Below are positions 6,983-61,461 of a stretch of DNA of 64,000 bases, one piece after another (positions within the stretch are counted from its first letter, which is position 1; the number at the start of each line of letters is the position of its first letter). This DNA comes from Terriglobia bacterium. Lineage in GTDB: Bacteria > Acidobacteriota > Terriglobia > 20CM-2-55-15. A program made the position numbers and the translations under genes. The notes under the pieces were generated by a model. That model was not told the DNA's origin. It searched no databases and saw nothing but the letters and a program-made list of their open reading frames with translations. The DNA is taken from NCBI GenBank assembly GCA_963664115.2, contig CAXWPJ010000006.1, positions 224,088 to 288,087 of the forward strand, given 5' to 3'.

Positions 6983-7837
6983 ATGAACTGCACGAGGGAA
7001 GGGTTGCTGCGACAAAGAGTTCGAACCGCGTTGGGATTTTCGATTTTCGCCCTGCTTCTGCTGGGTTGTATGCCGATCCAGCTGTCGGCACAGCTGCCCG
7101 ACGCGTCCAACGGAGTGCCGGATCTGACCGGAATCTGGTCGAGAGGTAGAAATAACTGTACGCCTAATGGCGTGACCTGCCCCTTCATCTTCAGCGAAAT
7201 TCCACTGAAAGCGCGTGCGATAGGATTCATGGCCGCGTGGGACGAGGCCGCGGGACCCAAGTACGATTGTGTGCCGGCGACGTCACCGTCTGTTGTGGCG
7301 GACCCGTATTCCATTCAGATCGAGCAACAGATAGACCGCGTCATCTTCACTTACGAGAAGGACGACATCATTCGGACAGTCTGGCTGGAGGGTCACGGAC
7401 ACCCGGACCCGCAACCCTACGACTTTACAGTGCAGGGATACTCGACCGGCCGATATGAGGACGGAAACCTTGTCGTTGAGACGACGAAGTTCACCTTCGA
7501 TCCGCACGGGCTGGACGACATGGCGAACGTGCCATCCTCCACGTTGAAGCGCGTCGTTGAAAGTTCCTCCACGTTGAAGTGCGTCGTTGAAAGTTATTCG
7601 TCGGATGGAGAAAACATGAGGGCGGAGGTGGTGACAGAAGATCCCGTCTTTCTAAACGGGCCGATCCAGTTTGCCATTGAGTGGGTTCCCCAGGACGAAC
7701 CCTTGATACTTCCATATGCCTGCCTGCCAGAACTGGCGAGACAGCCGGCGCAGTTTATTCCTTCAAAATACGAAGATCCGGACATGTTCAGGGTGCGCCT
7801 TCCCGCTGCATTTCCACCGGCTGGAGAGCCCGAGTGA
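6983..7837 (+). CDS. Secreted partner protein of unknown function (copy 1)
   Basis: Signal peptide ..LLGCMPIQLSAQ. Collinear motifs DLTGIW, RTVWLEGHGHP, GYSTGRYEDGNLVVETTKF, EDPVFL and PYAC are shared with the genes at 35322 and 38128. ATG at 6983 is preferred to the listed TTG at 6908. Confidence 0.8.
   Translation: MNCTREGLLRQRVRTALGFSIFALLLLGCMPIQLSAQLPDASNGVPDLTGIWSRGRNNCTPNGVTCPFIFSEIPLKARAIGFMAAWDEAAGPKYDCVPATSPSVVADPYSIQIEQQIDRVIFTYEKDDIIRTVWLEGHGHPDPQPYDFTVQGYSTGRYEDGNLVVETTKFTFDPHGLDDMANVPSSTLKRVVESSSTLKCVVESYSSDGENMRAEVVTEDPVFLNGPIQFAIEWVPQDEPLILPYACLPELARQPAQFIPSKYEDPDMFRVRLPAAFPPAGEPE
7535..7594 (+). repeat. In-frame 30 bp tandem duplication inside the CDS 6983-7837
   Basis: TCCTCCACGTTGAAGCGCGTCGTTGAAAGT occurs twice in tandem (7535-7564 and 7565-7594) with one mismatch. 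It encodes SSTLKRVVES / SSTLKCVVES. Confidence 0.95.
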
Positions 7838-7892: not shown

Positions 7893-8264
7893 ATGCGATA
7901 CTTTTTTCCCGGTCTGATTTTAACCGGCCTCTGTTTGTCAGCTCTTCCCGGGTTTGCCCACCACGCGACGACAGCCTTCTACCATCAGGATCAGTGGGTG
8001 GAGATCGAGGGTGTCGTCCAGCAGTGGCTCTTCAGGAATCCGCATCCCGTCCTTTACGTCCAGGCTCCTGACGCGGATGGAGAGATCCGGGTGTTTGAGA
8101 TCGGTTTCGCCCCGGCAACTGTGTTGGCAAAGCGAGGGTGGAGTACGGAAACCTTTCAGGAGGGCGATGTCATTCAAGCGAGAGGGCACCCGTCCAAGGC
8201 GCCAGGGACCTATGGGTTAAGTGGAGCGGCGATCCGTCGGGAGGATGGCACCGAAGTCCGTTAG
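7893..8264 (+). CDS. Small secreted protein, His-His mature N-terminus family (copy 2)
   Basis: Signal peptide ..LSALPGFA, then HHATTAFY. WVEIEGVVQQWLFRNPHPVLYV and FAPATVLAKRGW are closely related to copy 1 at both protein and DNA level. Confidence 0.85.
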   Translation: MRYFFPGLILTGLCLSALPGFAHHATTAFYHQDQWVEIEGVVQQWLFRNPHPVLYVQAPDADGEIRVFEIGFAPATVLAKRGWSTETFQEGDVIQARGHPSKAPGTYGLSGAAIRREDGTEVR

Positions 8265-8391
8265 AGGGCTCCTGGAGGTTGTCGAAAGTCATAGTCCTTA
8301 GGTCTTGCGCCAACCCGTGTAAGTTGAATAAAATTGGCTGTTTCGAATAGCTACATCTGCATATAAATCACAATTGGGTATAAGGAGATTT

Positions 8392-9411
8392 ATGACTCGA
8401 ATCAGTGGAGCCTCATTGCTGCTCGTTATAGTCGGGCTGATGGCTCAACCGGTAGAAGCCCGTCCGGAATTCTTCATGCAGTTCCAGAGTGATCCGTTTC
8501 GGAACGTGGAGCTGGATACCTGCGGGGTTTGTCACGAGAATCCGGGAGGCGGCGGTCCTCGAAACGAATTCGGTCTGACCTTCGCTGAGGCAGGATTCCA
8601 GATCACGCCGATGATGAGGGCGAATTATCCGGACCGATTCACGGTCACAACGTTGGAAACCGGAAACACACCCACGATCTCGGAACCGAACGTTGTCTCC
8701 AAAATTTACTTGTCGGACCCGGACAATGAATTGATGGTTGTCGAGTTTCTTGCGATAGACGAGGCCAACGCTTTGCTGGAACCCACAATGCAGGTCGTGA
8801 GTCTGTTGGGCGGTGCGGTCGGGGGGGAAGATGACCAGACGCCGGAGAATTCGATGAGCTTCTTCATTACCAGTACAGGTCCCGGCGATGGGGCCAACCT
8901 GGGCGGGTTGGCCGGCGCGGACGCGCATTGCCAGTCACTTGCGGACGCCGCAGGGCATGCAGACAAGACCTGGCGCGCATACCTCAGCACGAGCTTTGAT
9001 GGAGAGCCCGCCCTCAACGCAGGCGACCGCGTCGGCGGCGGCCCCTGGTATAACGCCAATGGGCTTCTCGTTGCGCAGGGCGTGCTCGACTTGCACAGTG
9101 ACGGGAACCGGCTTAGTAAAATGGGCTCTCTGAATGAAAGAGGAGAAGTCGTCAACGGCAGGGGAGACGATCCCAACCGCCACGATATCCTTACAGGAAC
9201 CCTGTTAAACGGTATGGCGGCAGTCGACATGAATTGCAGCAATTGGACCAGCAATGGTGAGGGCAGCGCTCTGCTGGGTCACCATGACCGCGAAGGTGGG
9301 GGGGACAATGGTAGTTCCTGGAATTCAGCCCATGCTTCGAGAAGTTGCAGTCAGGCCGACTTGCAGGCGACCGGCGGCGACGGCCTGTTCTACTGCTTCG
9401 CTATCGACTAA
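8392..9411 (+). CDS. Secreted protein with an N-terminal CxxCH motif and a C-terminal endostatin/DUF1554-like (C-type-lectin-fold) domain
   Basis: ATG at 8392 preceded by AAGGAG. Signal peptide ..MAQPVEA. CGVCH at 8521-8535 is followed by NPGGGGPRNEFG. The C-terminal ~185 aa (FFITSTGPG..GGLAGADAHCQ..TWRAYLS..CSNWTS..LFYCFAID) resembles the collagen XV/XVIII endostatin sequence as I remember it. Confidence 0.8.
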   Translation: MTRISGASLLLVIVGLMAQPVEARPEFFMQFQSDPFRNVELDTCGVCHENPGGGGPRNEFGLTFAEAGFQITPMMRANYPDRFTVTTLETGNTPTISEPNVVSKIYLSDPDNELMVVEFLAIDEANALLEPTMQVVSLLGGAVGGEDDQTPENSMSFFITSTGPGDGANLGGLAGADAHCQSLADAAGHADKTWRAYLSTSFDGEPALNAGDRVGGGPWYNANGLLVAQGVLDLHSDGNRLSKMGSLNERGEVVNGRGDDPNRHDILTGTLLNGMAAVDMNCSNWTSNGEGSALLGHHDREGGGDNGSSWNSAHASRSCSQADLQATGGDGLFYCFAID

Positions 9412-9444
9412 GCCGCTGACTCTCTGCGACAGTATTTTCTCGAA

Positions 9445-9605: not shown

Positions 9606-10691
9606 TTGAAATTTGGATATTTCACCTTAAGCGACAACGCGTACCCGAATAATCCCCGTTCACCTGAACAGTTCATTACAGAGATTCGGGAGCAAGCGAT
9701 CTACGCCGACCAATTGGGTATGCACTCGGCATGGATTGGAGAGCATCACTTCGATTCTCTTGGAGTCAATTCGCGTCCGGGTACCTTGCTGGCCAGCATT
9801 GTCCCGGTAACGAAGAATATCCGGCTCGCGCCTGCGGTTGCCGTACTCCCATTGCACCACCCTCTCGATGTTGCGGAAGAATGGGCCACGATCGATTTGA
9901 TTTCCGGTGGTCGCGTGGACTTCGCGGCGGGCCGCGGCTACGACAGGCGGGAGTATGATCCCTTCGGGGCTCCGTTTATGGAGTCCGCAGAAATATTTTC
10001 CGAGTCCATCGATGTCATTCTGAAAGCCTGGAACTCACCCGGCCCCTGGTCGCACGAAGGAAAATACTTCCAGATACCGGAGATGCAGATCACGCCGCAC
10101 CCGCTTCAGAAACCGATTCCTTTCTTCATCGCGAGCTTCTCTGAAACCAGTGTTGATATTGCTGCCAAACGGGGCCTGAACATCATCTACGCACCGTTTG
10201 CCGCGGGGATGGTATTCGGAGGTCTCGACCGGGCCGTAGATATATATCGGGAAAAATGCGCGAGTCACGACCGCACCGCGGGGCGGACCTTGTGCAGCTA
10301 CTTTGTCCACTTCGCGGACACACCCGAAGAGGAAGAGTTTGGACGGCAGGCTCAGATGTCATACTTCAAGAACTGCGCCTTGCCTGCTTTCCCGAAGAAT
10401 CCCGCGAAAATGCCGCCCACAATGCAGTACTTCATGAAGATCTGCGACATCCTCGAGAACATGCAGAAGGAAGACCTGACGGACAAATCGATTCTCATCG
10501 GTCCATCTTCGAAGGCCATCGAAACTCTTAAACGAGTCGAAGCTGCGGGAATTACCGAGGTCATCCTTTATTTCAACGTCGGCAATAAACCCCACCAGTT
10601 GGTAAAGGAGCAAATGGCCAAGTTTATGGAAGAGGTTGCGCCCGCGTTCGAGGGGGGGACGGACACTTCAGAGTTCGGGATAAATCCCTGA
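9606..10691 (+). CDS. LLM-class (luciferase-like) flavin-dependent oxidoreductase
   Basis: 361 aa. MKFGYFTLSDN...AIYADQLGMHSAWIGEHHF and the overall layout are typical of luciferase-like monooxygenases. The last 12 codons (GGTDTSEFGINP) are encoded by the palindromic element at 10655-10725. Confidence 0.9.
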   Translation: MKFGYFTLSDNAYPNNPRSPEQFITEIREQAIYADQLGMHSAWIGEHHFDSLGVNSRPGTLLASIVPVTKNIRLAPAVAVLPLHHPLDVAEEWATIDLISGGRVDFAAGRGYDRREYDPFGAPFMESAEIFSESIDVILKAWNSPGPWSHEGKYFQIPEMQITPHPLQKPIPFFIASFSETSVDIAAKRGLNIIYAPFAAGMVFGGLDRAVDIYREKCASHDRTAGRTLCSYFVHFADTPEEEEFGRQAQMSYFKNCALPAFPKNPAKMPPTMQYFMKICDILENMQKEDLTDKSILIGPSSKAIETLKRVEAAGITEVILYFNVGNKPHQLVKEQMAKFMEEVAPAFEGGTDTSEFGINP

Positions 10692-10725
10692 TACTCCAGG
10701 ATCGATTTCTGAAGTGTCCGTCCCC
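10655..10725. repeat. Palindromic element copy E1 (arms GGGGACGGACACTTC / GAAGTGTCCGTCCCC, 41 nt loop)
   Basis: Perfect 15 bp inverted arms at 10655-10669 and 10711-10725. It lies between convergent genes. The left arm and part of the loop fall inside the 3' end of CDS 9606-10691. Confidence 0.95.
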
Positions 10726-11612
10726 TTAGTCGATGGCGAAACAGTAGAACAATCCGTCGCCGCCGGTCGCCTGCAGGTTTTCCTGGCTGCATCCCCTGGA
10801 CGGGTGGGCCGCGTTCCACTGATCGCGATCATGGTGGCCCAGCATCGCCTGACCTTCCTCACCGCCGTTGGTCCAGCTTTCACACGTTAACGAATACCCT
10901 GCGTCGGCCATGTTCAGCAGGTCCAGCAATTCCCACGGCCACGCAGTACCATTCGGGCGTGAACCGGTGAGGATGTCGTGGCGGTTGACCTCATCTCCGC
11001 CGCCGCTGACGATTTCACCGCGCTCGTTTAACGCTGTCTCCTTCCTGAGGTTATTGCTGCTCGAATGCAGTTGCTCGATATTGTTGGAGATCATGATGCC
11101 CCGAGCGTTGTACCAGGGGCCCGGGCCAATCCGGTCACGCGCGTCCACAGGTTCCGTCTCACTGGTGATGCTCAGGTACGCCCGCCACGTTTTGTTTCCT
11201 GCGCCCACGCCTTCCGTAAGCAACTGGCAGTGTCCGTCCGCACCTGACAGTCCCCCAGATCACCGCCCCTTCCGGGACCATTGCTGGTCAGGAAAAAGCT
11301 GAAGTTCTGAGGAAGATCTCCCAGACTCTGGGTGCCAGGGGCTGATTCTGTGGCCGCGCTGAGGAACATGTCGGGATACTCCTGGCGCAGTGCAGGAGTT
11401 ATTGAATATCCCGCGATCTCGAAACCGCGACCAAAGACGTTGCGGGGTCCGCCGCCTCCAGGATCCTGATGGCAGACGCTGCAACCATCGATCCCGGGAC
11501 GCCGCATCGGATCGGCCAGATAGTCATCGAGGAACTCAGGAAATGCCGAGGCGGGAAGCGAGATCGATCCAAGTAAGAGTAGCAACATGAACATTCGATT
11601 TGTCCCAATCAT
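10726..11612 (-). pseudogene. Frameshifted paralogue of 8392-9411 (CxxCH + endostatin/DUF1554-like domain)
   Basis: The two listed ORFs (11172-11612 and 10726-11223) together are collinear with the 8392-9411 protein: signal peptide, CSVCH at 11469-11483, ..FFLTSNGPGRGGDLG then, in another frame, GLSGADGHCQLLTEGVGAGNKTWRAYLS...LFYCFAID. One extra G in the 5-G run (C-run 11252-11256 on the plus strand) would restore the frame. Confidence 0.8.
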
Positions 11613-11857
11613 TGAGTCCCTTTCGTTAAGTAATAATTCCGTGAGGGCTTCTAAAGGCGTAGTTTACGCCGCCTTTCGGAGTTGAGGCAACCGTCGGTCA
11701 CGCCCTTCAAATGGTTACTATCGACAGACTCCACTGTCCTTGTGATTGAATCATCCCTTCACGATTCCGTTATTGGATTTGCCGTATAGATCGTGCAGGA
11801 TAGCTTCAGATGCAGACGCCTGCCCAGTTTGTGACCAATCTGAAGGAGATTCGGCGG

Positions 11858-12979
11858 ATGAAAGGATTAGTCCTTTCGATTGCGTTGATAATGACCGCAT
11901 GGGTGCAATTCGGGCACACTGAACCCCAGACCCGCCAGCTGCCTCCACCCGGACTGCCCACCCCTGTGGCAGATGTGGCGGACCCTGTCACGAACATCAA
12001 AACACGACTTATCGAAGCCGCCACTCGGGGAGAAACTGCAGAGGTCGGGCAACTTCTTGAAGAAGGGGCCGACGTGAATACGATGAATCCCAGTGGTTTC
12101 ACCCTACTCCTTCTGACTGGTCTCGAAGGCCACGTCGATACGATGCGGCTACTGGCCGAGGCTGGTGCTGATCTGGAGGTCCGGGATGGCAACGGTGCGA
12201 CGGCGCTGATTCCACTGGTTGCCGAGGGCCGGATCGATTCACTCAGGGCATTGCTCGAGCTCGGGGCTGATGTCGATGCCGCTGATGACAACGGTGCGAC
12301 GGCTCTGATGGTGGCAGGTTTCCACGGTCTCTACGAAGTCGTTAAAGTCCTGCTCGCCGCTGGCGCCAGTGTCGATTCTGAAGACTTCAATGGGGCGACG
12401 CCGTTGTTGTGGGCGGCCTCGCGAGGCGAACAGCGCACAATCGAGCTCCTTCTCGACGGCGGATCCGATGTCAACCGGAAGGATGTCAACGGATGGACCG
12501 CATCCATGGTTGCGGCGATTCAGGGTCGCATCCAGGCTGTGGGGGTTCTGATTGATCGCGGCGCGGACCTGAGTATCCGAAACAACGGAGGGGGCACGGC
12601 GTTGATGGGGGCAGCCCTGGCAGGTCATGCCGATGTCCTCCAGATACTCCTGGATGCGGGGGGCGACGTCAACGCGGCTGACGCAGATGGTATTACAGCG
12701 TTGATGTGGGCTGCGTCGGAGGGACACATCGACGGTTTTGACAGACTGCTCCGTGGGGGTGCAGACGTCAACGCGGTTGCGGTTGATGGAGGGACGGCCT
12801 TGGTGATGACTGCATCCGGGGGGCATGCGGAAGTGGCTCGGCGCCTCCTCGATTCCGGAGCCGCCGTCGATTCCCGAACCACTAATGGGGGTGAGGCCCT
12901 TGCGGCGGCTCTGGCCGGTGGTTACACGGAGATTGTGGTCATGTTGCGGAGGGCCGGAGCCCGCCAACCCGCACGATAG
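11858..12979 (+). CDS. Secreted ankyrin-repeat protein
   Basis: ATG at 11858 preceded by AAGGAG. Signal peptide MKGLVLSIALIMTAWVQFG. About nine consecutive ankyrin repeats (NGATALM.AA..GH..VV..LL.AGA.V). Confidence 0.9.
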   Translation: MKGLVLSIALIMTAWVQFGHTEPQTRQLPPPGLPTPVADVADPVTNIKTRLIEAATRGETAEVGQLLEEGADVNTMNPSGFTLLLLTGLEGHVDTMRLLAEAGADLEVRDGNGATALIPLVAEGRIDSLRALLELGADVDAADDNGATALMVAGFHGLYEVVKVLLAAGASVDSEDFNGATPLLWAASRGEQRTIELLLDGGSDVNRKDVNGWTASMVAAIQGRIQAVGVLIDRGADLSIRNNGGGTALMGAALAGHADVLQILLDAGGDVNAADADGITALMWAASEGHIDGFDRLLRGGADVNAVAVDGGTALVMTASGGHAEVARRLLDSGAAVDSRTTNGGEALAAALAGGYTEIVVMLRRAGARQPAR

Positions 12980-20292: not shown

Positions 20293-21278
20293 CAAAATCT
20301 GCGAATCCCCACACTGCGGTTGAAGTCGAACAATGGCTTCGCATGTATCGGGGCATGCAAAAAATCCGATTGTTTGAGGATGCGGCGAACGAGCTCTACA
20401 CCGCAGCGATCATGCCGGGGTTGGCACACCTTTACTCGGGCGAGGAAGCAATTGCCGTGGGTGTATGCGAAGCGCTTCGGAGGGAAGACTACATTACCAG
20501 TACGCACCGTGGGCACGGCCATTGTGTTGCGAAGGGAGCGGATCTGGACCGGATGTTCGCTGAATTACTGGGCAAGCGAGCCGGCTACTGCAAGGGGAAG
20601 GGCGGTTCGATGCACATCGCTGACCCCGATACGGGCAATCTGGGCGCCAACGCCATTGTCGGTGGAAGCATTGGCATCGCAACGGGTGCGGCGTTTTCGG
20701 CCAAGCGGCTCGGGACAGACCTGGTTGCGGTCTGTTTCTTCGGTGACGGGGCACTTGGACAGGGATTGCTTTACGAGGCCATGAACATGGCCGCCCTCTG
20801 GAAGCTGCCCGTTATCTACGTTTGCGAGAACAATCTATACAACGAGTACACGCACAATTCCGAAACGCTCGCGGGCAACATCTTGGAACGCGGCTCGGCT
20901 TTTGGAGTGCCGGGTCATCATGTGGACGGCCAGGACGTGCGCGCCGTTTACGAAATTACAAACGGTCTTGTGGACCGAGCCCGCAAAGGTGAGGGCCCGT
21001 CCTACCTGGTTGCCGATACCTACCGTTTCCACGGGCATCACGTGGGCGATATCAATCGTACGTATTATCGTTCCAAGGAAGAAGAGAAGGAGTGGAAAAC
21101 CAATCGCGATCCCATCAAGAATTTCGGTGCGTGGTTGGTAGCCGAACAGATTGCCGATAGCAACAGTCTGAGTCAGATCGAGGCTGAAGTGCAGAGCGAA
21201 ATCGACGCGGCCGTCCAGTTTGCGAAGGACGCCCCCTACCCGGCTGTCGAAGAGGTGGATCAAGATGTCTATGCCTGA
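20289..21278 (+). CDS. Thiamine-diphosphate-dependent 2-oxo acid/acetoin dehydrogenase E1 alpha subunit
   Basis: 329 aa. YRGHGH, GKGGSMH, FFGDGA..QG and ENN.Y motifs are present. The start overlaps the previous stop (ATGA). Confidence 0.9.
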   Translation: MTKSANPHTAVEVEQWLRMYRGMQKIRLFEDAANELYTAAIMPGLAHLYSGEEAIAVGVCEALRREDYITSTHRGHGHCVAKGADLDRMFAELLGKRAGYCKGKGGSMHIADPDTGNLGANAIVGGSIGIATGAAFSAKRLGTDLVAVCFFGDGALGQGLLYEAMNMAALWKLPVIYVCENNLYNEYTHNSETLAGNILERGSAFGVPGHHVDGQDVRAVYEITNGLVDRARKGEGPSYLVADTYRFHGHHVGDINRTYYRSKEEEKEWKTNRDPIKNFGAWLVAEQIADSNSLSQIEAEVQSEIDAAVQFAKDAPYPAVEEVDQDVYA

Positions 21279-22266
21279 AACTCAAACTGCAGTACGTCAA
21301 CTCACACTGGGCGACGCTGTTCGCGAGGCGCTCAGCGAAGAATTACGGCGCGATCCAACTGTTCTCATTCTCGGCGAAGATATAGCCGAGGCCGGAACCG
21401 CCTTCAAGGTCCTGACCGGTATGGTCGATGAGTTTGGGCCTGAGCGCATCCTGGATACGCCAATATCGGAACCGGGCTTTACCGGAATCGCAGTCGGTGC
21501 TGCGATGACGGGTCTGCGTCCGGTGGTGGACATCATGTTTGGTGATTTCATTGGGCTCACCATGGATCAGATGGCGAACCAGGCCGCGAAGATCCACTAC
21601 ATGTCGGGGGGCAAGTGGAAAGTTCCGATGGTCATGCGGACGACACTGGGCGCAACCAGACGGACCGCGGCGCAGCACTCGCAATCACTGCAAGCATGGT
21701 TCTGTCACGTGCCGGGATTGAAGGTTGTCATGCCGTCGACGCCTTACGATGCCAAGGGACTGATGAAAACCGCTATCCGGGACGACAATCCCGTGGTGAT
21801 TTTCGAAGACAAAATGATGTACGGGCTGAAAGGTCCGGTCCCTGAAGAGGAGTACACGATTCCTTTGGGTGTGGCCGACATTAAACGTGAAGGCGATGAC
21901 CTGACGATTGTGGCGACCAGCAGCATGGTACAGGTGGCATTGGGTGCGGCTAATATGCTGGAAGAACACGACATCAGCGCCGAAGTGGTCGATCCGCGCA
22001 CGCTGTGGCCGCTCGATGAGCAGACCATTCTGGAATCGGTGAAGAAAACCTCACGTGCAATCGTCATGGACGAAGGGTACGGGCGATACGGCGTCATGGC
22101 CGAGCTCGCTGCGGTGATTGCGGAAGGTGCTTTCTTTGATCTGGAAGCACCCGTAAAGAGAATAGGAGCGATGCATGTTCCTATTCCGTTTTCTCCTCCG
22201 CTGGAAGATGCGACCGTGCCGACCGAAGAGATGGTGTTTGAGGCCGCGAAGGAACTCTGCGGTTAG
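21265..22266 (+). CDS. 2-oxo acid/acetoin dehydrogenase E1 beta subunit
   Basis: The transketolase-like pyrimidine-binding and C-terminal domains are recognisable (LTLGDAVREAL, GEDI, DTPISE.GF.G.A.GAA..G.RP). ATG at 21265 overlaps the E1 alpha stop by 14 nt. The listed ORF start at 21220 is inside E1 alpha. Confidence 0.9.
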   Translation: MSMPETQTAVRQLTLGDAVREALSEELRRDPTVLILGEDIAEAGTAFKVLTGMVDEFGPERILDTPISEPGFTGIAVGAAMTGLRPVVDIMFGDFIGLTMDQMANQAAKIHYMSGGKWKVPMVMRTTLGATRRTAAQHSQSLQAWFCHVPGLKVVMPSTPYDAKGLMKTAIRDDNPVVIFEDKMMYGLKGPVPEEEYTIPLGVADIKREGDDLTIVATSSMVQVALGAANMLEEHDISAEVVDPRTLWPLDEQTILESVKKTSRAIVMDEGYGRYGVMAELAAVIAEGAFFDLEAPVKRIGAMHVPIPFSPPLEDATVPTEEMVFEAAKELCG

Positions 22267-32043: not shown

Positions 32044-32066
32044 CTTAGAGTTACAAACAGTCATCG

Positions 32067-32097
32067 AGCGGCGGGGGCCCAGCCTCCGCCGCTTTTT
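32067..32097 (+). terminator. Rho-independent terminator of the TonB receptor gene
   Basis: AGCGGCGGGGG ... CCTCCGCCGCT stem followed by TTTTT. Confidence 0.75.
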
Positions 32098-32110
32098 CGT
32101 GGGCTGGAAA

Positions 32111-32173
32111 GGGACGGACACTTCCGTTGACATTTGGGCCTTATTGCGGTGTTTCGACTGAAGTGTCCGTCCC
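32111..32173. repeat. Palindromic element copy E2
   Basis: GGGACGGACACTTC (32111-32124) and GAAGTGTCCGTCCC (32160-32173) with a 35 nt loop CGTTGACATTTGGGCCTTATTGCGGTGTTTCGACT. Confidence 0.95.
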
Positions 32174-32325
32174 ACCCAAGAGCTCACGCGACGTTCCCCG
32201 GTGGGGGTGGCACAGTGTCGCCGAATCGCGCTAATATACGAGTGTGCTCCGAGTCGGCGCCTTCATAAAATTGCTATCCTTTCGGGAACTTATAATTCAG
32301 CAAAGAGTGGTCAGGAGAGTGTGAA

Positions 32326-34328: not shown

Positions 34329-34518
34329 CGGTCATTCGAACCCTACCGTGTTCCGGCCTTACCTTCAGGGCCACTCGTGTAACGAGTTCGAATCACCTCA
34401 CGACTCTTGAATGTCGGATGTCATGGGACTAGGCTTAATTCAGCGGCACACGACACCGCCACTTCGTGTGCGGAGTCAATAGAGTCACAGGGACAGTCTC
34501 TGATTTGAGGGGGAACTC

Positions 34519-34914
34519 ATGAAATCTAAAATTCTTGTTCTGCTTGTCGCTGGAATATTGGTATCGGGCGTGGCGGCCTATGCCCACCACTCCTTCACAG
34601 CGACTTACGATGAAGATGGATTGGTCGAGATTGAAGGGGAGTTGGTGCAGTTCCTTTTCCGCAATCCCCACTCCTGGGTCCATGTGATGGCTCCGGATGA
34701 AAATGGCGATTTGGTTCGCTACGGCGTCGAATGGGGTGGAGCCGGCCAGTTGGCGGGCGGCGGCGTGACCCGGTCTACGCTGAGGCCTGGCGACCACGTC
34801 ATTATTAGCGGTAACCCGGGGCGCAATCCTGCGGATCATAGAATCCGGATGCGGAGTCTCCGGAGGACGTCCGACAATTTTGGTTGGGGATTTGAAGGCG
34901 AAGACTTCGACTAG
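34519..34914 (+). CDS. Small secreted protein, His-His mature N-terminus family (copy 3)
   Basis: Signal peptide ..SGVAAYA, then HHSFTATYDEDGLVEIEGELVQFLFRNPHSWVHV. The mature part differs from copy 4 at only three residues. Confidence 0.9.
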   Translation: MKSKILVLLVAGILVSGVAAYAHHSFTATYDEDGLVEIEGELVQFLFRNPHSWVHVMAPDENGDLVRYGVEWGGAGQLAGGGVTRSTLRPGDHVIISGNPGRNPADHRIRMRSLRRTSDNFGWGFEGEDFD

Positions 34915-34957
34915 AGCTAAGCTTCACCCCTGCTGATCCCAGCAAAACGAAGACCAT

Positions 34958-35006
34958 AGGGCACGGTGTCCGCGTATTCGAGGATGCCGTGCCCTTACGC
35001 CGTTTT
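34958..35006 (+). terminator. Terminator-like hairpin after 34519-34914
   Basis: AGGGCACGG ... CCGTGCCCT (9 bp stem, ~20 nt loop) followed by ..CGTTTT. Confidence 0.4.
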
Positions 35007-35321
35007 GGTACCATTTTGATGAAGCCAATCGGTCGTGTCCGAACAGACAGCCGGGCGCTCCGAATGCCCTAGCCCCACCCGAGGTGTCCTGATGGTGACT
35101 GTGACGCTTCGCGGCGACAACCCGTGAGAAATGCGGGCTAAGACTTTTGCAATCAAATTCTTGACAAAGGATGTGCGGCTGTAGATAGTGGGGTGTCGCG
35201 CCTGTTTTCGGGATAAAAGCGGCTGTTTTGAGGCGCAGAGGTCACCCGAGAATCGTGTCGCGCCCCAAGGGGGAAAACGCCGCTCGTATTCGGAAGCTCA
35301 ACCGCCGAACCGGAGGATTAA

Positions 35322-37485: not shown

Positions 37486-37610
37486 CGATGATTTGAGAAA
37501 TGTCGACCAATCGATGTTTCAATGAGCAGATAAACTGAATACAGAATATTACGGATAACTCACTTTTAATTTTATGTAAGAGACCGCCATTGTTTTAGGA
37601 GGAAGACCCG

Positions 37611-38006
37611 ATGAAGTTCAAACTGATCGCCCTTGCGCTTGCTGCCATGTTGGTGTCGGGTGTGGCTGCCTACGCTCACCATTCGTTCACCGCAACCTAC
37701 GATGAAGATGAATTGGTCGAGATCGAAGGGGAGTTGGTGCAGTTCCTTTTCCGCAATCCGCACTCCTGGGTCCATGTGATGGCTCCAGATGAAAATGGCG
37801 AGATCGTTCGCTACGGGGTCGAATGGGGTGGAGCCGGCCAGTTGGCGGGCGGGGGTGTGACCCGCTCCACGCTGAGACCCGGCGACCACGTCATTATTAG
37901 CGGTAACCCGGGGCGCAATCCTGCGGATCATAGAATCCGGATGCGAAGTCTTCGACGGACATCTGACAATTTTGGATGGGGATTTGAAGGCGAGGACTTC
38001 GACTAG
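37611..38006 (+). CDS. Small secreted protein, His-His mature N-terminus family (copy 4)
   Basis: Near-duplicate of 34519-34914. The signal peptides diverge, the mature parts are almost identical, and the DNA differs mostly at third codon positions. Confidence 0.9.
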   Translation: MKFKLIALALAAMLVSGVAAYAHHSFTATYDEDELVEIEGELVQFLFRNPHSWVHVMAPDENGEIVRYGVEWGGAGQLAGGGVTRSTLRPGDHVIISGNPGRNPADHRIRMRSLRRTSDNFGWGFEGEDFD

Positions 38007-40769: not shown

Positions 40770-41072
40770 ATGGTCAAACACATTGTTATCTGGAAACTGA
40801 AAGATAGGGCGAACGGACAGGGCAGGGACGCGAACGCGGCGGCGATCAAGGAAAAGCTGGAAGCTCTGGTCGGAGTCGTGCCGGGGCTTCTAAAAGCTGA
40901 AGTCGGTTGCGATTTTCGCGGGTCCGGGGAGTCCGCGGATGCCGGCCTGTACTCTGAATTCGAGTCCCGGGAGGCGTTCGAAGCGTTTCTCACCCATCCT
41001 GCCCACAAAGCGGTTCAGCCCTTTGTGAAAGAAGCGCGTAGCGAAAGGGTGATGATCGACTACGAGGTGTAA
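40770..41072 (+). CDS. Dabb (stress-responsive alpha/beta barrel) family protein
   Basis: 100 aa. MVKHIVIWKLKD... and ..FEAFLTHPAHKAVQPF are typical of Dabb domains. Confidence 0.85.
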   Translation: MVKHIVIWKLKDRANGQGRDANAAAIKEKLEALVGVVPGLLKAEVGCDFRGSGESADAGLYSEFESREAFEAFLTHPAHKAVQPFVKEARSERVMIDYEV

Positions 41073-41090
41073 TGGGGAGAGAGGCCGAGA

Positions 41091-41154
41091 GGGGACGGAC
41101 ACTTCTTGCTGCATCATTGCCTGAACGCTATATTTTGACTGAAGTGTCCGTCCC
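41091..41154. repeat. Palindromic element copy E3
   Basis: GGGGACGGACACTTC (41091-41105) and GAAGTGTCCGTCCC (41141-41154). The 35 nt loop is TTGCTGCATCATTGCCTGAACGCTATATTTTGACT. It lies between convergent genes. Confidence 0.95.
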
Positions 41155-41165
41155 TCCCTTCCCTC

Positions 41166-42854
41166 CTACCGGCACTCGAAGTTGCTTGCGACCCAATTGG
41201 CTCTATCGTTCTGCCCGCCCGCCGGACCGGCATATGTGGCCAGTTCGGGATAAGGGCAGATCTTGCGCTGATTGTCCACGACACCATCGGTGAGATGCTC
41301 TCCCACGAGGTAGTCGGGCGCGTTACCGTTTTCTACCCAGTCCCTCAGGGGAGCCAAACGGTCAAACGATTCGAGTCCGGGACCCCCACCACAGTGGCTC
41401 ATGCCAGGCACCATGAAGAAGCGTGCTTTTTCACGAGCGGCGTCCAGGTTCCCGCCGAAGGTTTCAGAAACTACGGATCGGTAATAATCCAGAGTCGGTT
41501 GCAGCTGCACTTCTGAATCACCCCACCCGTGCAACAAGAGAAGTTTGCCGTTTTCGCGGTTCAGGAAACGGTTCAAATCCGGATCCTTAGCATCCGTAAT
41601 CGACATCATGAAGTCGGCCTTTCCAGCCGTGAGGTCGTCGATGTCGAACTCCCACCAGGCAAACTCCGGAGGCGTGGCCGTTTTGTCCGGGACCTGGGTG
41701 ATGTCGTTCCGAATTGGCATCGGAACGCCTGGAGATTCTTCGTAGAACAGATAGTTGACGTGATCGAGTCCGTATATGAGCCGGAACGGCGTCATGTTGT
41801 TGCCTTCGTGGGCGTACACGTTGCGGCTCCAACCGTATTCGGAACCCAAAGCCAGGCCCTTGGTGATCTGAACCCCGCTGCTGTCGACCGGTCCCCGATA
41901 GAAATCTTTGATGGTTTGAAGTTGGGGCCGGGTGATGCAATCGTCCGCATCGACGCCTGCCGGACACATCCACTCGGCCAGATCGCGGTCCGGATCAAAG
42001 TTGCAGCTCGACGGGTCGGCCAGCAGGCCGTCGCTTATGCCGTCGAGGGCATCGCATTGGTCGATGACTGTGTCCCTCAATATTTCTGATTTCGTCAGGC
42101 TTTCGGGAATCCCATCGCCGTCGGTGTCAAAGGCCAGGTTGGCGGCGAAGTTGTCCTTGAAGACTTGCTGAGCCATCCAGACATGGCCGGCGTTGAGTGT
42201 TTGGTAGTCATAGACGGGCGCCTCCGCGACGATACCGTCGAAATCGGCCGGATACCGCTGGGCTTCCATGAGCCCTTGCCGTCCGCCCGTGGAGCAACCC
42301 TCAAAATAGGAGTATTCGGGCGCACGGTTGTAATAGCGACGGACCGCGGTTTTCGAAGCACTGGCCGTCAGGTGAATGGCACGATAGCCGAAATCGATGA
42401 CGGAGGGCATATCTTCACTACCGAACGACGCACCCGGATGGGTTCCCGCGTCATGGCCGGTATTCGAGTTCGCCACGGCGTATCCTTCCGCCAGTCGGTG
42501 ATCCGCCCAGTCCAAATCCCCATCCTTGCCGCCGTCTCCGATGTTGAGCAGCCTTCCGTTCCAGTTCGCCTGGAGTGGAAGTTGCATATGGAAGCGGATC
42601 CTTCCGGAGATGATGCCCTGGATATAGCAGTACTCGGGTGTCTCTCCTGAAGCGGGTACGAGCATCGCCTGTGTTAGCGTCAGGTCCAGGGCGCGGAGCA
42701 TGGACGCACACATAGCCGCATCTTGCGGAGACGCTTGAACACTCTGGCCGGCCACTGCGGGCGTTGCCAGGACCAAAATCGAAGCCACTGCGATCGCACC
42801 TAAAGTCGCCAGGTACTTGAACACTTCCAAAGTCCTCCTGTTACTCGTCCACAC
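41166..42854 (-). CDS. Tannase/feruloyl esterase family alpha/beta hydrolase, secreted
   Basis: 562 aa with a signal peptide. The GCSTGGRQGLMEAQRYPADFDGIVAEAPV nucleophile region and conserved Cys pairs are typical of the tannase/feruloyl esterase family. Confidence 0.9.
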   Translation of the reverse strand: MWTSNRRTLEVFKYLATLGAIAVASILVLATPAVAGQSVQASPQDAAMCASMLRALDLTLTQAMLVPASGETPEYCYIQGIISGRIRFHMQLPLQANWNGRLLNIGDGGKDGDLDWADHRLAEGYAVANSNTGHDAGTHPGASFGSEDMPSVIDFGYRAIHLTASASKTAVRRYYNRAPEYSYFEGCSTGGRQGLMEAQRYPADFDGIVAEAPVYDYQTLNAGHVWMAQQVFKDNFAANLAFDTDGDGIPESLTKSEILRDTVIDQCDALDGISDGLLADPSSCNFDPDRDLAEWMCPAGVDADDCITRPQLQTIKDFYRGPVDSSGVQITKGLALGSEYGWSRNVYAHEGNNMTPFRLIYGLDHVNYLFYEESPGVPMPIRNDITQVPDKTATPPEFAWWEFDIDDLTAGKADFMMSITDAKDPDLNRFLNRENGKLLLLHGWGDSEVQLQPTLDYYRSVVSETFGGNLDAAREKARFFMVPGMSHCGGGPGLESFDRLAPLRDWVENGNAPDYLVGEHLTDGVVDNQRKICPYPELATYAGPAGGQNDRANWVASNFECR

Positions 42855-46954: not shown

Positions 46955-48535
46955 ATGTGGATCGTTCTGTGTGCTATGGCTTTGATCCTTGGGGGCGTCA
47001 TCGTCTATGACGTGATTCAGCGGAAACATGCCATTCTTCGGAACTATCCCGTCATCGGGCACTTTCGATATCTGTCCGAGGCCATTGGCCCGGAACTGAG
47101 ACAGTACATCGTCACGAGCAATAACGAAGAGCGCCCCTTCAGCCGGGACCAACGCAGCTGGATTTATGCTTCATCGAAAAGCGAGAACAACTATTCCGGA
47201 TTTGGCACCGACGATGAACTCGAACTCTCCCCCAACTACACCGTAATCAAGCATTCGGCATTTCCGCTTCCAAGCATTTATCCAGGAGATCCCGGTTACG
47301 ATGAGCGTCACCGCATCCCCTCGGCGAAGGTGCTCGGCCGGCATCGCCGACGTCGCAAGGCATTTCGGCCCGCATCCATTGTCAACGTATCCGGTATGAG
47401 CTATGGCTCCTTGAGTGGGGCGGCCATAGAAGCGTTAAATCGGGGTTCCGCAATAGCCGAGTGTTTGCACAACACCGGGGAGGGTGGCGTGTCTCCTTTT
47501 CACCAGTCCGGAGGTGAACTGATATGGCAGATCGGAACCGGCTACTTCGGATGTCGAGACAAGCAGGGCCGATTTTCGATGGAACGGTTTCGAGATACGG
47601 TAGCGGCACATCCGATTCGTGCCATCGAAATCAAACTCAGTCAAGGTGCGAAGCCGGGACTGGGCGGTGTCCTTCCAGGAAGAAAAGTGACCGAAGACAT
47701 TGCCAACGCGAGGGGAGTCCCCGCCGGTCAGACATGTGCCAGTCCGAACGCACACAGTGTGTTTACGGACGTGGATAGCATGTTGGATTTTGTAGAGACC
47801 CTCGCCGATGTCAGTGGCCTGCCCGTGGGTATCAAGTCGGCGGTCGGCGACTTGGGTTTTTGGAAGACCCTGGCCGGGGAGATGGCCGCCGGTGGACGTG
47901 GGGTTGATTTCGTCACGGTGGATGGTGGTGAAGGCGGAACCGGCGCCGCACCCATGGTGTTTGCCGACCATGTTGCCCTGCCGTTCAAAAACGGCTTCAG
48001 CCGGGTCTACCGGGAGTTCGCAGAGCAGGGTATTCACGAAAATGTTGTCTTTATCGGTTCGGGAAAACTGGGATTCCCCGAATCAGCGGTTTTTGCCTTT
48101 GCCCTGGGTTGCGACATGATTGCCGTGGCGCGGGAGGCGATGATGGCCATCGGATGTATTCAGGCACAGCGATGCCACACCGGACACTGTCCCGCCGGTA
48201 TTGCGACGCAGAACAAGTGGCTGGTGCGCGGACTCGACCCGAACTTGAAGGCGGACCGGTTTGCAAACTACATTTGTACCCTGCGCAAGGAGATTGCCGC
48301 GCTGGCCGGTGCCTGCGGGGTCGTGCATCCGGCATTTCTAAGCGACGAGCACGTTGAAATCCTGGATGGCCGCTTCGGAACGTCCTCGCTGTTTGAACTG
48401 TTCGGATACCGCGAGGGTTGGGGTCTTCCATCCCGGGTCGAGAGTGAGGAAATCTGCCGGTTGATCGGGCGCACCCATCCCGACACGATTTCCAACCTGG
48501 GGGAGCAATCCACCCCACTGAGATTGGCGAGCTAG
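46955..48535 (+). CDS. FMN-binding glutamate synthase family protein (GltB domain-2-like) with an N-terminal TM helix
   Basis: 526 aa. NVSGMSYGSLS, IKLSQGAKPGLGGVLPG.KV, VDGGEGGTGAAP and CHTGHCPAGIATQ. Confidence 0.9.
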   Translation: MWIVLCAMALILGGVIVYDVIQRKHAILRNYPVIGHFRYLSEAIGPELRQYIVTSNNEERPFSRDQRSWIYASSKSENNYSGFGTDDELELSPNYTVIKHSAFPLPSIYPGDPGYDERHRIPSAKVLGRHRRRRKAFRPASIVNVSGMSYGSLSGAAIEALNRGSAIAECLHNTGEGGVSPFHQSGGELIWQIGTGYFGCRDKQGRFSMERFRDTVAAHPIRAIEIKLSQGAKPGLGGVLPGRKVTEDIANARGVPAGQTCASPNAHSVFTDVDSMLDFVETLADVSGLPVGIKSAVGDLGFWKTLAGEMAAGGRGVDFVTVDGGEGGTGAAPMVFADHVALPFKNGFSRVYREFAEQGIHENVVFIGSGKLGFPESAVFAFALGCDMIAVAREAMMAIGCIQAQRCHTGHCPAGIATQNKWLVRGLDPNLKADRFANYICTLRKEIAALAGACGVVHPAFLSDEHVEILDGRFGTSSLFELFGYREGWGLPSRVESEEICRLIGRTHPDTISNLGEQSTPLRLAS

Positions 48536-48599: not shown

Positions 48600-50177
48600 T
48601 TGTGGATTCTCACCACTATTGTGATCGTTATCGTGGCGGTGACCGGCTACGATCTAATCCAGCGCAAGCACGCCGTGCTCCGCAATTTCCCCATCATTGG
48701 TCACTTCCGATACCTCTTTGAAGCGGTCGGCCCAGAACTCCGGCAATACATCGTCACAAGTAATAACGAGGAACGTCCTTTCAGCCGGGACCAGCGCTCC
48801 TGGATTTATGCGTCCTCTAAAGGTCAGAACAACTATCGGGGTTTCGGTACCGACGAAGAACTCGAGTTGTCGCCGAATTACATGATCATCAAGCACTCGG
48901 CGTTCCCCCTGATCGCGCCGAATCCCGAGGATCCCGCTTACGACCCGAGCCACCCCGCACCGTGTGCCAAAGTCTTGGGAGCCGCCCGGGGAAGGGAAAG
49001 AGCTTTTCGTCCGGCCTCAATCGTCAACGTATCCGGGATGAGTTTCGGCTCTCTGAGCGCTCGGGCTGTTGAAGCATTAAACATGGGGAGTCGTGAGGCC
49101 GGATGTCTTCAGAACACAGGGGAAGGTGGAGTGGCTCCGTGTCACAAGAAGGGTGGAGAACTGATATGGCAGATCGGAACCGGCTATTTCGGGTGCCGTG
49201 ATGAGCGCGGAGGTTTTTCCATGGAGCAGTTCCTGGAAACCGTCCATTCTGCTCCGATTCGCGCCATCGAAATCAAACTGAGCCAGGGCGCCAAGCCGGG
49301 CCTTGGCGGAGTGTTACCGGGAGCGAAAGTCTCTCCCGAAATCGCGGCTATACGTGGCATACCGGTCGGTCAAACGTGCGCGAGTCCCTCGCGCCACTCC
49401 GCGTTCGGCGATGTGGACAGCATGCTGGACTTCGTCGAGCTTTTGGCTGACAAGTCGGGATTGCCCGTAGGTATCAAATCGGCAGTGGGTGAAACCAATT
49501 TTTGGCGAACATTGACTCGCCAGATGGCGACGACGAACAGGGGGATAGACTTTTTGACGATTGATGGAGGCGAAGGTGGAACCGGTGCCGGACCTCTGGT
49601 GTTTACCGACCACGTCGCACTTCCTTTCAAGCAGGGTTTCAGCCGTGTGTATCGCGAATTTGCGGAAGCTGGAATTCAGGATCGTGTGGTTTTTATCGGG
49701 TCCGGTCGGCTGGGATTCCCCGAATCCGCCATCCTGGCGTTTTCACTGGGCTGCGACATGATCGCCGTCGGGCGAGAGGCGATGATGTCCATCGGTTGTA
49801 TACAGGCCCAGCGATGCCACACCGGTCATTGCCCCACGGGAGTTGCCACGCAGAACAAGTGGCTCATTCGCGGATTGGATCCTCAGCTGAAGTCCGCTCG
49901 TCTGGCCAACTATATCTACACCTTGCGTAAGGAACTGCTGTCGGTATCGCGGGCCTGCGGCCTATTTCATCCCGCATTGTTGACCGATGCCCACATCGAG
50001 ATTCTGGACGGGCGTTTTGGGGCGGCATCTCTTTTCGATGTGTTCCATTACAGAGATGACTGGGGTCTGCCTTCGAAGCGGGACACCAGAGAGATTTGCC
50101 GGATCATGGAAAGTTGTTCTGGCGTAGAGACCTCACCGGACATTCTGCCTGAGATGGCCGCTATGAATCCTCATTAG
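48600..50177 (+). CDS. FMN-binding glutamate synthase family protein, tandem paralogue
   Basis: 525 aa, collinear with 46955-48535 along the whole length, with the same motifs and N-terminal TM helix. Confidence 0.9.
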   Translation: MWILTTIVIVIVAVTGYDLIQRKHAVLRNFPIIGHFRYLFEAVGPELRQYIVTSNNEERPFSRDQRSWIYASSKGQNNYRGFGTDEELELSPNYMIIKHSAFPLIAPNPEDPAYDPSHPAPCAKVLGAARGRERAFRPASIVNVSGMSFGSLSARAVEALNMGSREAGCLQNTGEGGVAPCHKKGGELIWQIGTGYFGCRDERGGFSMEQFLETVHSAPIRAIEIKLSQGAKPGLGGVLPGAKVSPEIAAIRGIPVGQTCASPSRHSAFGDVDSMLDFVELLADKSGLPVGIKSAVGETNFWRTLTRQMATTNRGIDFLTIDGGEGGTGAGPLVFTDHVALPFKQGFSRVYREFAEAGIQDRVVFIGSGRLGFPESAILAFSLGCDMIAVGREAMMSIGCIQAQRCHTGHCPTGVATQNKWLIRGLDPQLKSARLANYIYTLRKELLSVSRACGLFHPALLTDAHIEILDGRFGAASLFDVFHYRDDWGLPSKRDTREICRIMESCSGVETSPDILPEMAAMNPH

Positions 50178-51531: not shown

Positions 51532-51596
51532 GGGGACGGACACCTCGAACAAAATACACTCGCCGCGCCAAGATGCCACAGGGAGTGTCCGTCCCC
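51532..51596. repeat. Palindromic element copy E4 (slightly degenerate arms)
   Basis: GGGGACGGACACCTC (51532-51546) and GAGTGTCCGTCCCC (51583-51596). The reverse complement of the loop shares GGCGAGTGTATT with copy E6. Confidence 0.85.
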
Positions 51597-54039: not shown

Positions 54040-54104
54040 GGGGACGGACACTTCAGTCGAAATAGCGCCATCAGGCGAAGATGTAGCGGGAAGTGTCCGT
54101 CCCC
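54040..54104. repeat. Palindromic element copy E5, preceded by GGGGAC reiterations
   Basis: Perfect arms at 54040-54054 and 54090-54104 with a 35 nt loop. Three further GGGGAC hexamers occur in 54003-54036. The right arm abuts the iscX stop codon. Confidence 0.95.
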
Positions 54105-61329: not shown

Positions 61330-61393
61330 GGGGACGGACACTTCATGCGACATTGTGACCTGGCGAGTGTATTGTGGCTGAAGTGTCCGTCCC
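61330..61393. repeat. Palindromic element copy E6 (in a divergent intergenic region)
   Basis: GGGGACGGACACTTC (61330-61344) and GAAGTGTCCGTCCC (61380-61393). The loop is ATGCGACATTGTGACCTGGCGAGTGTATTGTGGCT. Confidence 0.95.
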
Positions 61394-61461
61394 TTTCCAG
61401 AGGATCAAGTCGGAAATCTCCACCGTCCCCGAATTGCCATGGTAAAATCTGCGGCTTCTCT

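Follow-up and report, generated by a model that had tools for sequence, protein, structure and literature searches.

A family of long-looped, REP-like palindromes dispersed between the genes of an uncultured Terriglobia genus

Introduction

In soil, Acidobacteria rank with the most abundant bacteria; to our knowledge their repeat content has barely been catalogued. A 64,000-nt stretch of a contig from an uncultured soil acidobacterium (Terriglobia), here called the window, carries six short palindromes with closely matching arms. All six lie between genes, oriented either way with respect to their neighbours, and the genes beside them are ordinary chromosomal genes. This raises the question of what kind of element is repeated here, how it may have spread, and whether its copies are kept by the host or are the decaying products of a mobile system.

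Results

The six palindromes are copies of one family

The elements are 63–71 bp long, have arms of the form GGGGACGGACAC(T/C)TC and GA(A/G)GTGTCCGTCCCC, and lie at 10655-10725, 32110-32174, 41091-41155, 51532-51596, 54040-54104 and 61330-61394 (copies 1 to 6); the original prediction had placed each of them to within 1 nt. The strict pattern GGGACGGACACYTC-N25-50-GARGTGTCCGTCCC matched five times in the window and never in 100 dinucleotide-preserving shuffles. Copy 4 (51532) escapes this pattern solely because the three innermost positions of its arms do not complement each other. All 12 arms retain an unbroken 11-nt core, GGGACGGACAC. The original prediction gave arms of 14–15 bp; in several copies the stem reaches outward to 17–19 bp (GAAGGGGAC...GTCCCCTTC). 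The six palindromes are genuine copies of one non-random repeat family. Chance palindromes or an assembly artefact are a negligible explanation in view of the empty shuffles, of the same copies in independent assemblies of the same species in ENA (L134, L135 and L152; 99.96–99.98% identity) and of further copies in related species.

A family HMM (nhmmer) detected no further copies in the window. The 10-mer GGACGGACAC occurs exactly 13 times, 12 times in the arms and once alone. This solo GTGTCCGTCC 10-mer at 11230-11239 lies just upstream of ORF 10726-11223 (minus strand), about 500 nt from copy 1; it was scored at E=0.27 by nhmmer and may be a decayed half element or a chance match.

Each copy folds into one long hairpin, with z-scores of −2.6 to −7.4 for RNA folding and −5.4 to −6.0 for DNA folding. 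Once copies 4 and 5 are reverse-complemented, the 35-nt loops of copies 2–6 align without gaps and are related, with a consensus of approximately aTGCnACATnnTGGCCTGnnGnnTGTATTTCGaCT and about half of the positions in common. The window loops differ by 30–45%, while all twelve arm cores are perfect. The relationship proposed earlier for all the loops therefore holds for copies 2–6 and not for copy 1, whose palindromic interior is not homologous to the other loops. Copy 1 represents a separate subfamily and resembles copies in L001 and L004 as well as two short variants in L154, a further contig of the same sample.

Position of the copies relative to genes

Copy 1 (10655-10725; 71 nt, no strand assigned) belongs to the short-loop, extended-palindrome subfamily, with arms GGGGACGGACACTTCAGAG.../...TTTCTGAAGTGTCCGTCCCC and a partly palindromic interior. 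It is located between convergent genes: a luciferase-like ORF (9606-10691) ends 37 nt inside the element, and the stop codon of ORF 10726-11223 (minus strand) abuts it. Copy 2 (32110-32174, plus strand; 14-bp arms, 35-nt loop) lies 67 nt past the stop codon of a CarboxypepD_reg/OMP_b-brl_4 gene and 152 nt upstream of an FAA-hydrolase gene. A hairpin followed by a T-run just upstream of copy 2 appears by eye to be the terminator of the CarboxypepD_reg/OMP_b-brl_4 gene; the terminator scan did not flag it. Copy 3 (41091-41155, plus strand) is flanked by a Dabb and a tannase gene that converge on it; the two stop codons are 19 and 11 nt away.

Copy 4 (51532-51596, minus strand), whose loop is reversed, begins 4 nt past the stop codon of a fatty-acid desaturase gene, and 14 nt separate its end from the ATG of a co-directional gene of 91 aa. 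The loop is also reversed in copy 5 (54040-54104, minus strand), which abuts the stop codon of iscX (PF04384) at the end of the isc/hscA operon and is convergent with an SDR gene. Copy 6 (61330-61394, plus strand) occupies the divergent region between a GFO/IDH/MocA gene and a DUF1015 gene, 70 nt upstream of the DUF1015 ATG, and has a stem of about 19 bp including its flanks. The contexts given in the original prediction are correct throughout, namely convergent genes for copies 1 and 3, co-directional genes for copy 4, an abutting stop codon for copy 5, divergent genes for copy 6 and a position behind a terminator-like hairpin for copy 2. The loop points along the direction of transcription in copies 2 and 5 and against it in copy 4.

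The GFO/IDH/MocA gene beside copy 6 is called with 398 aa and a start codon inside the element (window 61346), and its counterpart in the relative L156, which is without the element, has 351 aa. Gene callers thus stretch ORFs into the elements (copies 1 and 6), which matters for annotation, and the hairpins could also disturb long-read assembly or transcript 3′ ends.

Several local duplications were also observed in the window. These are the DUF6152 genes at 34507-34806 and 37599-37898 (84% nucleotide identity), tandem Glu_synthase paralogues at 46955-48535 and 48600-50177 (about 75%), a 30-nt tandem duplication at 7535-7594 (97%) and a 94-nt inverted match (80%) between 9319-9412 and 10725-10818, the 3′ ends of ORF 8374-9411 and ORF 10726-11223.

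Evidence for a DNA-level element rather than an oriented RNA signal

An RNAalifold alignment of 13 members yielded the 14-bp stem alone, with an unstructured loop and no covarying pair. Searches against Rfam 15 gave no hit at gathering thresholds and none at the elements at E≤1, and a structured RNA was rejected on these two grounds. The flanks are mixed in C and T without a T-run, so that the GC-rich hairpins lack the T/U tract of an intrinsic terminator, and scans revealed no promoter-like or terminator-like sites at copies 2, 3 and 6. By eye, the loop suggested a mobile sigma-70 promoter, with hexamers similar to TTGACA and TATATT at a spacing of 17 nt; this candidate was rejected since both hexamers vary considerably from copy to copy and no promoter-like sites emerged from the scan. 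Taken together, the two loop orientations and the lack of T-tracts, promoter and terminator sites, Rfam matches and covariation argue for a DNA-level element and against an oriented RNA signal.

No consistent flanking direct repeat of at least 3 nt, and hence no target-site duplication, was seen at any copy. In a full-text literature search with the arm 10-mer, the matches listed were unrelated papers, mostly of the primer type. Together with the Rfam result this is in line with the original prediction, in which the sequence was not recognised as a described family. The family is previously undescribed; the kind of element is an ordinary, known one.

Distribution and copy number

Among 185,579 species-representative genomes the strict pattern was found in six stretches, five of them in three "Terriglobia bacterium" MAGs. 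The number of strict matches in each related Terriglobia MAG (1–3) is an underestimate, because a single arm substitution abolishes the match, as in L156. Seven pattern hits were obtained in viral contigs, none of them a family member.

Two further stretches of the window species were available. The next 10 kb to the right of the window (L152) contain zero copies. L154, a 21.5-kb stretch from another contig of the same sample, was attributed to the window species because it shares the insertion sequence (IS) of the window at 99.9% identity. It carries a single long-loop copy, which is degenerate and accompanied by an additional solo arm, and two short-loop palindromes, GGGGACGTACACTTCAGAAT..., at 8101-8148 and 12337-12390 with arms GGG(G/C)ACGTACACTTCAGAAT. 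Compared with the window arm, the short palindromes show a G-to-T exchange that is mirrored in both arms of both copies, the sole clear both-arm change seen within the species. Over the 95 kb of this small sample (window, L152 and L154) elements recur at a density of approximately one in 10 kb. That the copy number is high across the genome had been deduced from the window; it is plausible, but the additional 31 kb attributed to the same species, which are without an intact long-loop copy, did not bear it out.

We do not claim a cross-phylum superfamily around GGGACGGACAC, as loose matches to the 10-mer palindrome in metagenomes are mostly unrelated hairpins and the enrichment of G/C beside the core in these matches is weak (25/71). 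Decamers of the type CACGGACNNN build 44 of the 115 unique loose-pattern matches. These 44 hairpins have (CACGGACNNN)n on one arm and the complement on the opposite one, with a 10-nt periodicity, and occur in many soil and sediment metagenomes (loci include L008, L014-L016, L018, L025, L046, L060, L065 and L087); we know of no repeat type to which they correspond.

Presence, absence and decay in relatives

Relatives of the window were collected through tannase homologues and through the members of 90%-identity protein clusters. Copies 2, 3 and 4 are present in L137 (tannase 97% identical at the amino acid level) and differ there by a few substitutions, among them one that affects an arm of copy 3. 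L155, from a 4,556,585-bp contig of one Terriglobia MAG, is syntenic with the window at about 85% nucleotide identity. In it, copy 3 has one decayed arm (GGGGACGAATAAACGCTTC) and a loop that is 74% identical. In L156, a relative at about 86% nucleotide identity, copy 5 shows one arm substitution and a loop identity of 77%. Copies 3 and 5 are thus old insertions, as their orthologues with decayed arms and diverged loops are found in relatives at 85–86% nucleotide identity.

Other sites are empty. In L139 (tannase 80% identical at the amino acid level) the copy-4 site reads TAG, 20 nt and ATG, whereas in the window it consists of TAG, 3 nt, the 65-nt element, 14 nt and ATG; compared with this empty site, the insertion of copy 4 is clean. 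The copy-6 site is empty in L156. At the copy-2 site (window 32044-32325), behind the terminator-like hairpin of the OMP gene, the more distant relatives L138, L139 and L141 have other palindromes. Those in L138 and L139 (about 21270-21560) are GTAG-type REP-like hairpins (tgtaggtgcggtctgtgaccgcaca), and the one in L141 (about 11360-11670) reads GGGGACAGACGCCTCTGTCC-acaag-GGACAGAGGCGTCTGTCCCC and fits the GGGGWSAS terminal inverted repeat motif (PMC3733652).

L002 and L154 also contain copies that are truncated or degenerate. Non-orthologous copies in two Terriglobia MAGs (L002 and L003) match the full length of copy 6 at about 87% identity; copy 6 is the window copy nearest to the apparent master, with the old copies 3 and 5 more distant. 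At the sequence level, the similarity between these copies points to a "master" lineage that is conserved. The pattern seen in the relatives is the one that such a lineage would leave behind if it replicated and its daughter copies drifted neutrally. In the orthologous comparisons approximately 7 changes were counted at 60 arm positions versus 17 at 70 loop positions, numbers too small for a decision. Since it was via their arms that the copies were recognized, the perfect arms of the window are no sign of selection. The family documents dated gains, losses and decay of REP-like elements across sister species of an uncultured Terriglobia genus.

Two further differences between the relatives were noted near the elements. 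An 819-bp SDR gene lies between the tannase and Dabb genes in L155 (11104-12006), L138 (11659-12482) and L141 (1767-2649); in L155 it directly follows the element, and it is deleted in the window (41072-41166) and in L137. One endpoint of the deletion is within about 0–18 nt of the edge of copy 3, so the element may have promoted the loss of the gene. A 57-nt noncoding block at window 35085-35141 (minus strand) is 82% identical to L002 5881-5937, from a different MAG, where it directly abuts an element copy. The block has no Rfam hit, and the window region around it (34915-35138) does not align with L155.

Likeness of the arm to REPs beside RayT genes of other Terriglobia

The arm of the family is similar to the 5′ half of a REP hairpin (GTGGGACGGACACTCCTGTCCGTC) flanking RayT (HUH-Y1) genes in other Terriglobia loci. 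When the window arm GGGGACGGACACTTC is set against the REP tail, 5′ stem and loop start, 13 of 15 positions are equal, a likeness that exists partly by construction since L037 and L095 were found in a loose metagenome search with the arm's own 10-mer palindrome; beyond the 10-mer, the arm matches the REP at just three of five further positions. In both loci hairpins with arms (G)GGACGGACACTCCTGTCCGTC stand on either side of an ORF (L037, 2456-3088, minus strand; L095, 11902-12402, plus strand) that encodes an IS200-like Y1 protein (Y1_Tnp, PF01797). The L037 protein scores 46 bits against PF01797. The score of the L095 protein, 20.8 bits, is just under the cut-off of 23 bits, with the HUH and Y motifs present (EHVH / WQ / YIRQNA). 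The latter protein has 2395 homologues. Many carry the annotation "REP element-mobilizing transposase RayT", and several are encoded in MAGs of Terriglobales or Sulfotelmatobacter.

Four additional loci (L142, L143, L144 and L146) were fetched via protein homology and are independent of the DNA pattern. The sequence GTGGGACGGACACTC(C/T)TGTCCGTC adjoins the RayT gene in L142 and L143, and a covarying form of the REP, GTGGGTCGGACACTCCTGTCCGAC, is found beside it in L144 and L146. The RayT-flanking REPs of L095, L142 and L143 contain GTGG, and every arm in L095 contains GACGGACA-CTCC-TGTCCGTC.

In Terriglobales the RayT gene is repeatedly adjacent to a gene for a PDDEXK_5 (PF11645) nuclease fold (L143 7967-10576, L144 9267-10489, L142 10001-11491, L095 11157-12402). 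The order pdxT, PDDEXK_5, RayT, miaB is conserved in L143 and L144-146, and this recurrent synteny suggests a vertically inherited, domesticated gene pair.

The original prediction recommended a search for a cognate RAYT. None came to light: tblastn detected no Y1/RayT gene in the window or in the other loci of the genus (about 190 kb non-redundant, 266 kb with overlaps), and none of the 120 RayT homologues listed among the 2395 lies on a contig of this genus. The cognate enzyme is accordingly hypothetical. The suggested RAYT link gains indirect support from the resemblance of the arm to RayT-flanking REPs of other Terriglobia and none from the gene content of the genus loci, in which no short RayT-type REPs were seen either. 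Two candidate genes were rejected. One, located between a half and a full copy in L002, reads as dienelactone-hydrolase-like by sequence inspection; the other is a RayT-like gene in L071 that is without flanking hairpins.

Discussion

A REP/REPIN-like family and how it may propagate

We consider it probable, at roughly 60%, that the elements form a non-autonomous REP/REPIN-like family of an uncultured Terriglobia genus that is, or formerly was, propagated by a RayT-type HUH enzyme. The elements are selfish and of mobile origin, and we read them as "double-foot" REP/REPIN-like elements. From the arm resemblance and the insertion pattern we infer mobilisation by RayT, with a system active now or formerly in this genome.

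Under such a mechanism, the two feet (GGGGACGGACACTTC and its complement) would correspond to the 5′ tail and stem of a RayT-flanking short REP, and the 35-nt unstructured spacer would stand in place of the inner half-stems of a REP doublet. Replication would expose the element as single-stranded DNA, allowing the hairpin to fold, and a RayT-type enzyme would recognise the foot of the stem and cut and rejoin the single strand. The element could then be excised or copied into other intergenic sites without target duplication. As intact feet would be required for recopying, the feet would look invariant, while the spacer would drift and give rise to a master sequence with a cloud of variants. 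Inserted copies would be inherited vertically, decay slowly and occasionally be lost. Effects on the host would probably be incidental, such as a stable hairpin at a transcript 3′ end or an occasional adjacent deletion.

Alternative explanations

A fairly unlikely alternative is that the hairpins, perhaps born by transposition, are now kept site by site because a GC-rich stem is useful to the host. The stem could shield the 3′ ends of mRNAs, dampen read-through between convergent or adjacent genes or serve as a binding site for a host protein, and the arms would be conserved by selection in situ and not by a filter on replication. The hairpins are indeed strong, four of the six copies are placed right at the 3′ ends of genes (0–4 nt past the stop codon for copies 4 and 5), and copies 3 and 5, which predate a split at about 85% nucleotide identity, have kept perfect arms in the window with loops diverged by 23–26%. 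The last point loses its force through the ascertainment effect described above. Furthermore, orthologous arms are decaying in L155, L156 and L137, which speaks against a general constraint on the arms, and in other relatives the sites are empty without apparent replacement. The occurrence of the loop in both orientations to transcription, the absence of a T-tract or another terminator-like signal, the lack of covarying pairs and the position of copy 6 in a divergent promoter region instead of at a 3′ end likewise fit poorly with a role of this type. Host selection and propagation by RayT are not mutually exclusive.

A conserved, asymmetric loop of 35 nt is atypical of REPs. It might indicate a distinct hairpin architecture, mobilised by an HUH enzyme or maintained by the host, in which feet derived from a RayT-associated REP are combined with a single long stem and the loop, conserved across species, serves as a functional module; we regard this as clearly unlikely. 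If it were true, the loop could for example be the real cleavage or guide site for a Y1 enzyme acting in trans, or a site for a host factor, and the window species would actively keep its arms perfect while sister species without the enzyme let them decay.

More doubtful still is a classical MITE, that is, an internally deleted IS of a DDE transposase, with the 15–19 bp arms as terminal inverted repeats and the 35-nt loop as the remnant of the interior. Perfect terminal inverted repeats around a conserved asymmetric interior are the usual anatomy of MITEs, and the window does contain one IS that is multicopy in the species. This IS (974-2830) encodes a 510-aa DDE_Tnp_1_4/DDE_Tnp_1 transposase (ORF 1099-2631), and further copies of it are present in L152 (98%, apparently frameshifted) and L154 (99.9%). 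Its ends, CTAGTCCCTGAACAAGCG and CTAGACCCAAAACAAGCG, are unrelated to the arms, and we therefore rejected it, the sole IS seen in the window, as the parent element. A DDE-type origin is also at odds with the lack of a target-site duplication at any copy, with the clean insertion revealed by the empty copy-4 site, with the likeness of the arms to REPs beside RayT genes and with the very small size of 63–71 bp.

The REP/REPIN-like reading therefore remains the one that we prefer. The family opens no new field. Should the RayT link be confirmed, its "half-REP foot plus long loop" would offer a natural variant for probing recognition by RayT.

Comparison with known systems

Small size, terminal inverted repeats and intergenic dispersal are shared with Correia elements of Neisseria, ERIC and BOX/RUP. 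Those families have target duplications (TA for Correia) and measure 100–150 bp or more; the window family is set apart from them by this description, being shorter and without target duplication. Of the affinities proposed originally, that to REP/BIME-type dispersed miniature palindromes stands; the absent target-site duplication and the differences in presence between relatives fit a REP-like biology better than that of Correia or ERIC elements (DDE-type MITEs).

Di Nocera et al. (2013, PMC3733652) describe RAYT-like genes of Acidobacteria (TIRYT/TIRtrons) flanked by inverted repeats with a shared GGGGWSAS motif; such repeats may also be dispersed as families, frequently in the form of dimers. 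Compared by motif alone, GGGG[AT][CG]A[CG] agrees with the arm start GGGGACGG at seven of eight positions, with G for A at position 7, and with the start of the L141 palindrome (GGGGACAG) at eight of eight. No TIRYT gene was found next to any of the copies.

Several features are shared with the REP/REPIN systems of RAYT/TnpA_REP enzymes in E. coli and Pseudomonas fluorescens. Here too, short GC-rich intergenic hairpins occur in both orientations without target duplication, their presence differs between related genomes, and the population consists of a master with variants; in addition, the window arm resembles RayT-flanking REPs of the same bacterial class. Like canonical REPs, the elements are short, palindromic, multicopy and extragenic hairpins (six intergenic copies in 64 kb) and are inserted without target-site duplication, which is what the action of HUH-Y1 enzymes leads one to expect (Quentin et al. 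2018, PMC6006769). With 63–71 nt they lie at or just over the upper limit of the published size range of REPs, 21–65 nt (PMC6006769). They differ in the foot, for no copy has the canonical 5′ GT[AG]G (GTAG or GTGG): GGGAC is preceded by A, G or C (aaG, gaG, aaA, aaC), giving feet of GGGG, AGGG or CGGG. They also differ in architecture. REPs and REPINs have loops of 2–5 nt or are doublets of two small hairpins, whereas the window arms are not self-complementary and the long-range stem alone forms, as one perfect stem of 14–19 bp around a 35-nt unstructured, sequence-conserved loop. Since the GT[AG]G foot is absent, neither a Y1 gene nor a short REP was found in the genus loci and the resemblance of the arm is partly constructed, we describe the elements as working like REP/REPIN and do not file them as canonical REPs.

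Among described forms, the "double-foot" long REPs of TnpA_REP subclass 2.4, which are proposed to originate from a central deletion in an inverted REP dimer (Quentin et al. 2018, PMC6006769), have the same arrangement in that the 5′ foot motif returns as its reverse complement at the 3′ end, and the window family fits the origin proposed for them. Their feet are GT[AG]G/C[TC]AC and they belong to Cyanobacteria, Bacteroidetes and various other phyla (PMC6006769), in contrast to the window foot GGGGAC.../...GTCCCC, and the motifs of the RayT relatives (EHVH / WQ / YIRQNA in L095) differ from those of subclass 2.4. Judged by its sequence, the window element as a whole resembles an inverted REP doublet in which a 35-nt spacer has taken the place of the inner half-stems.
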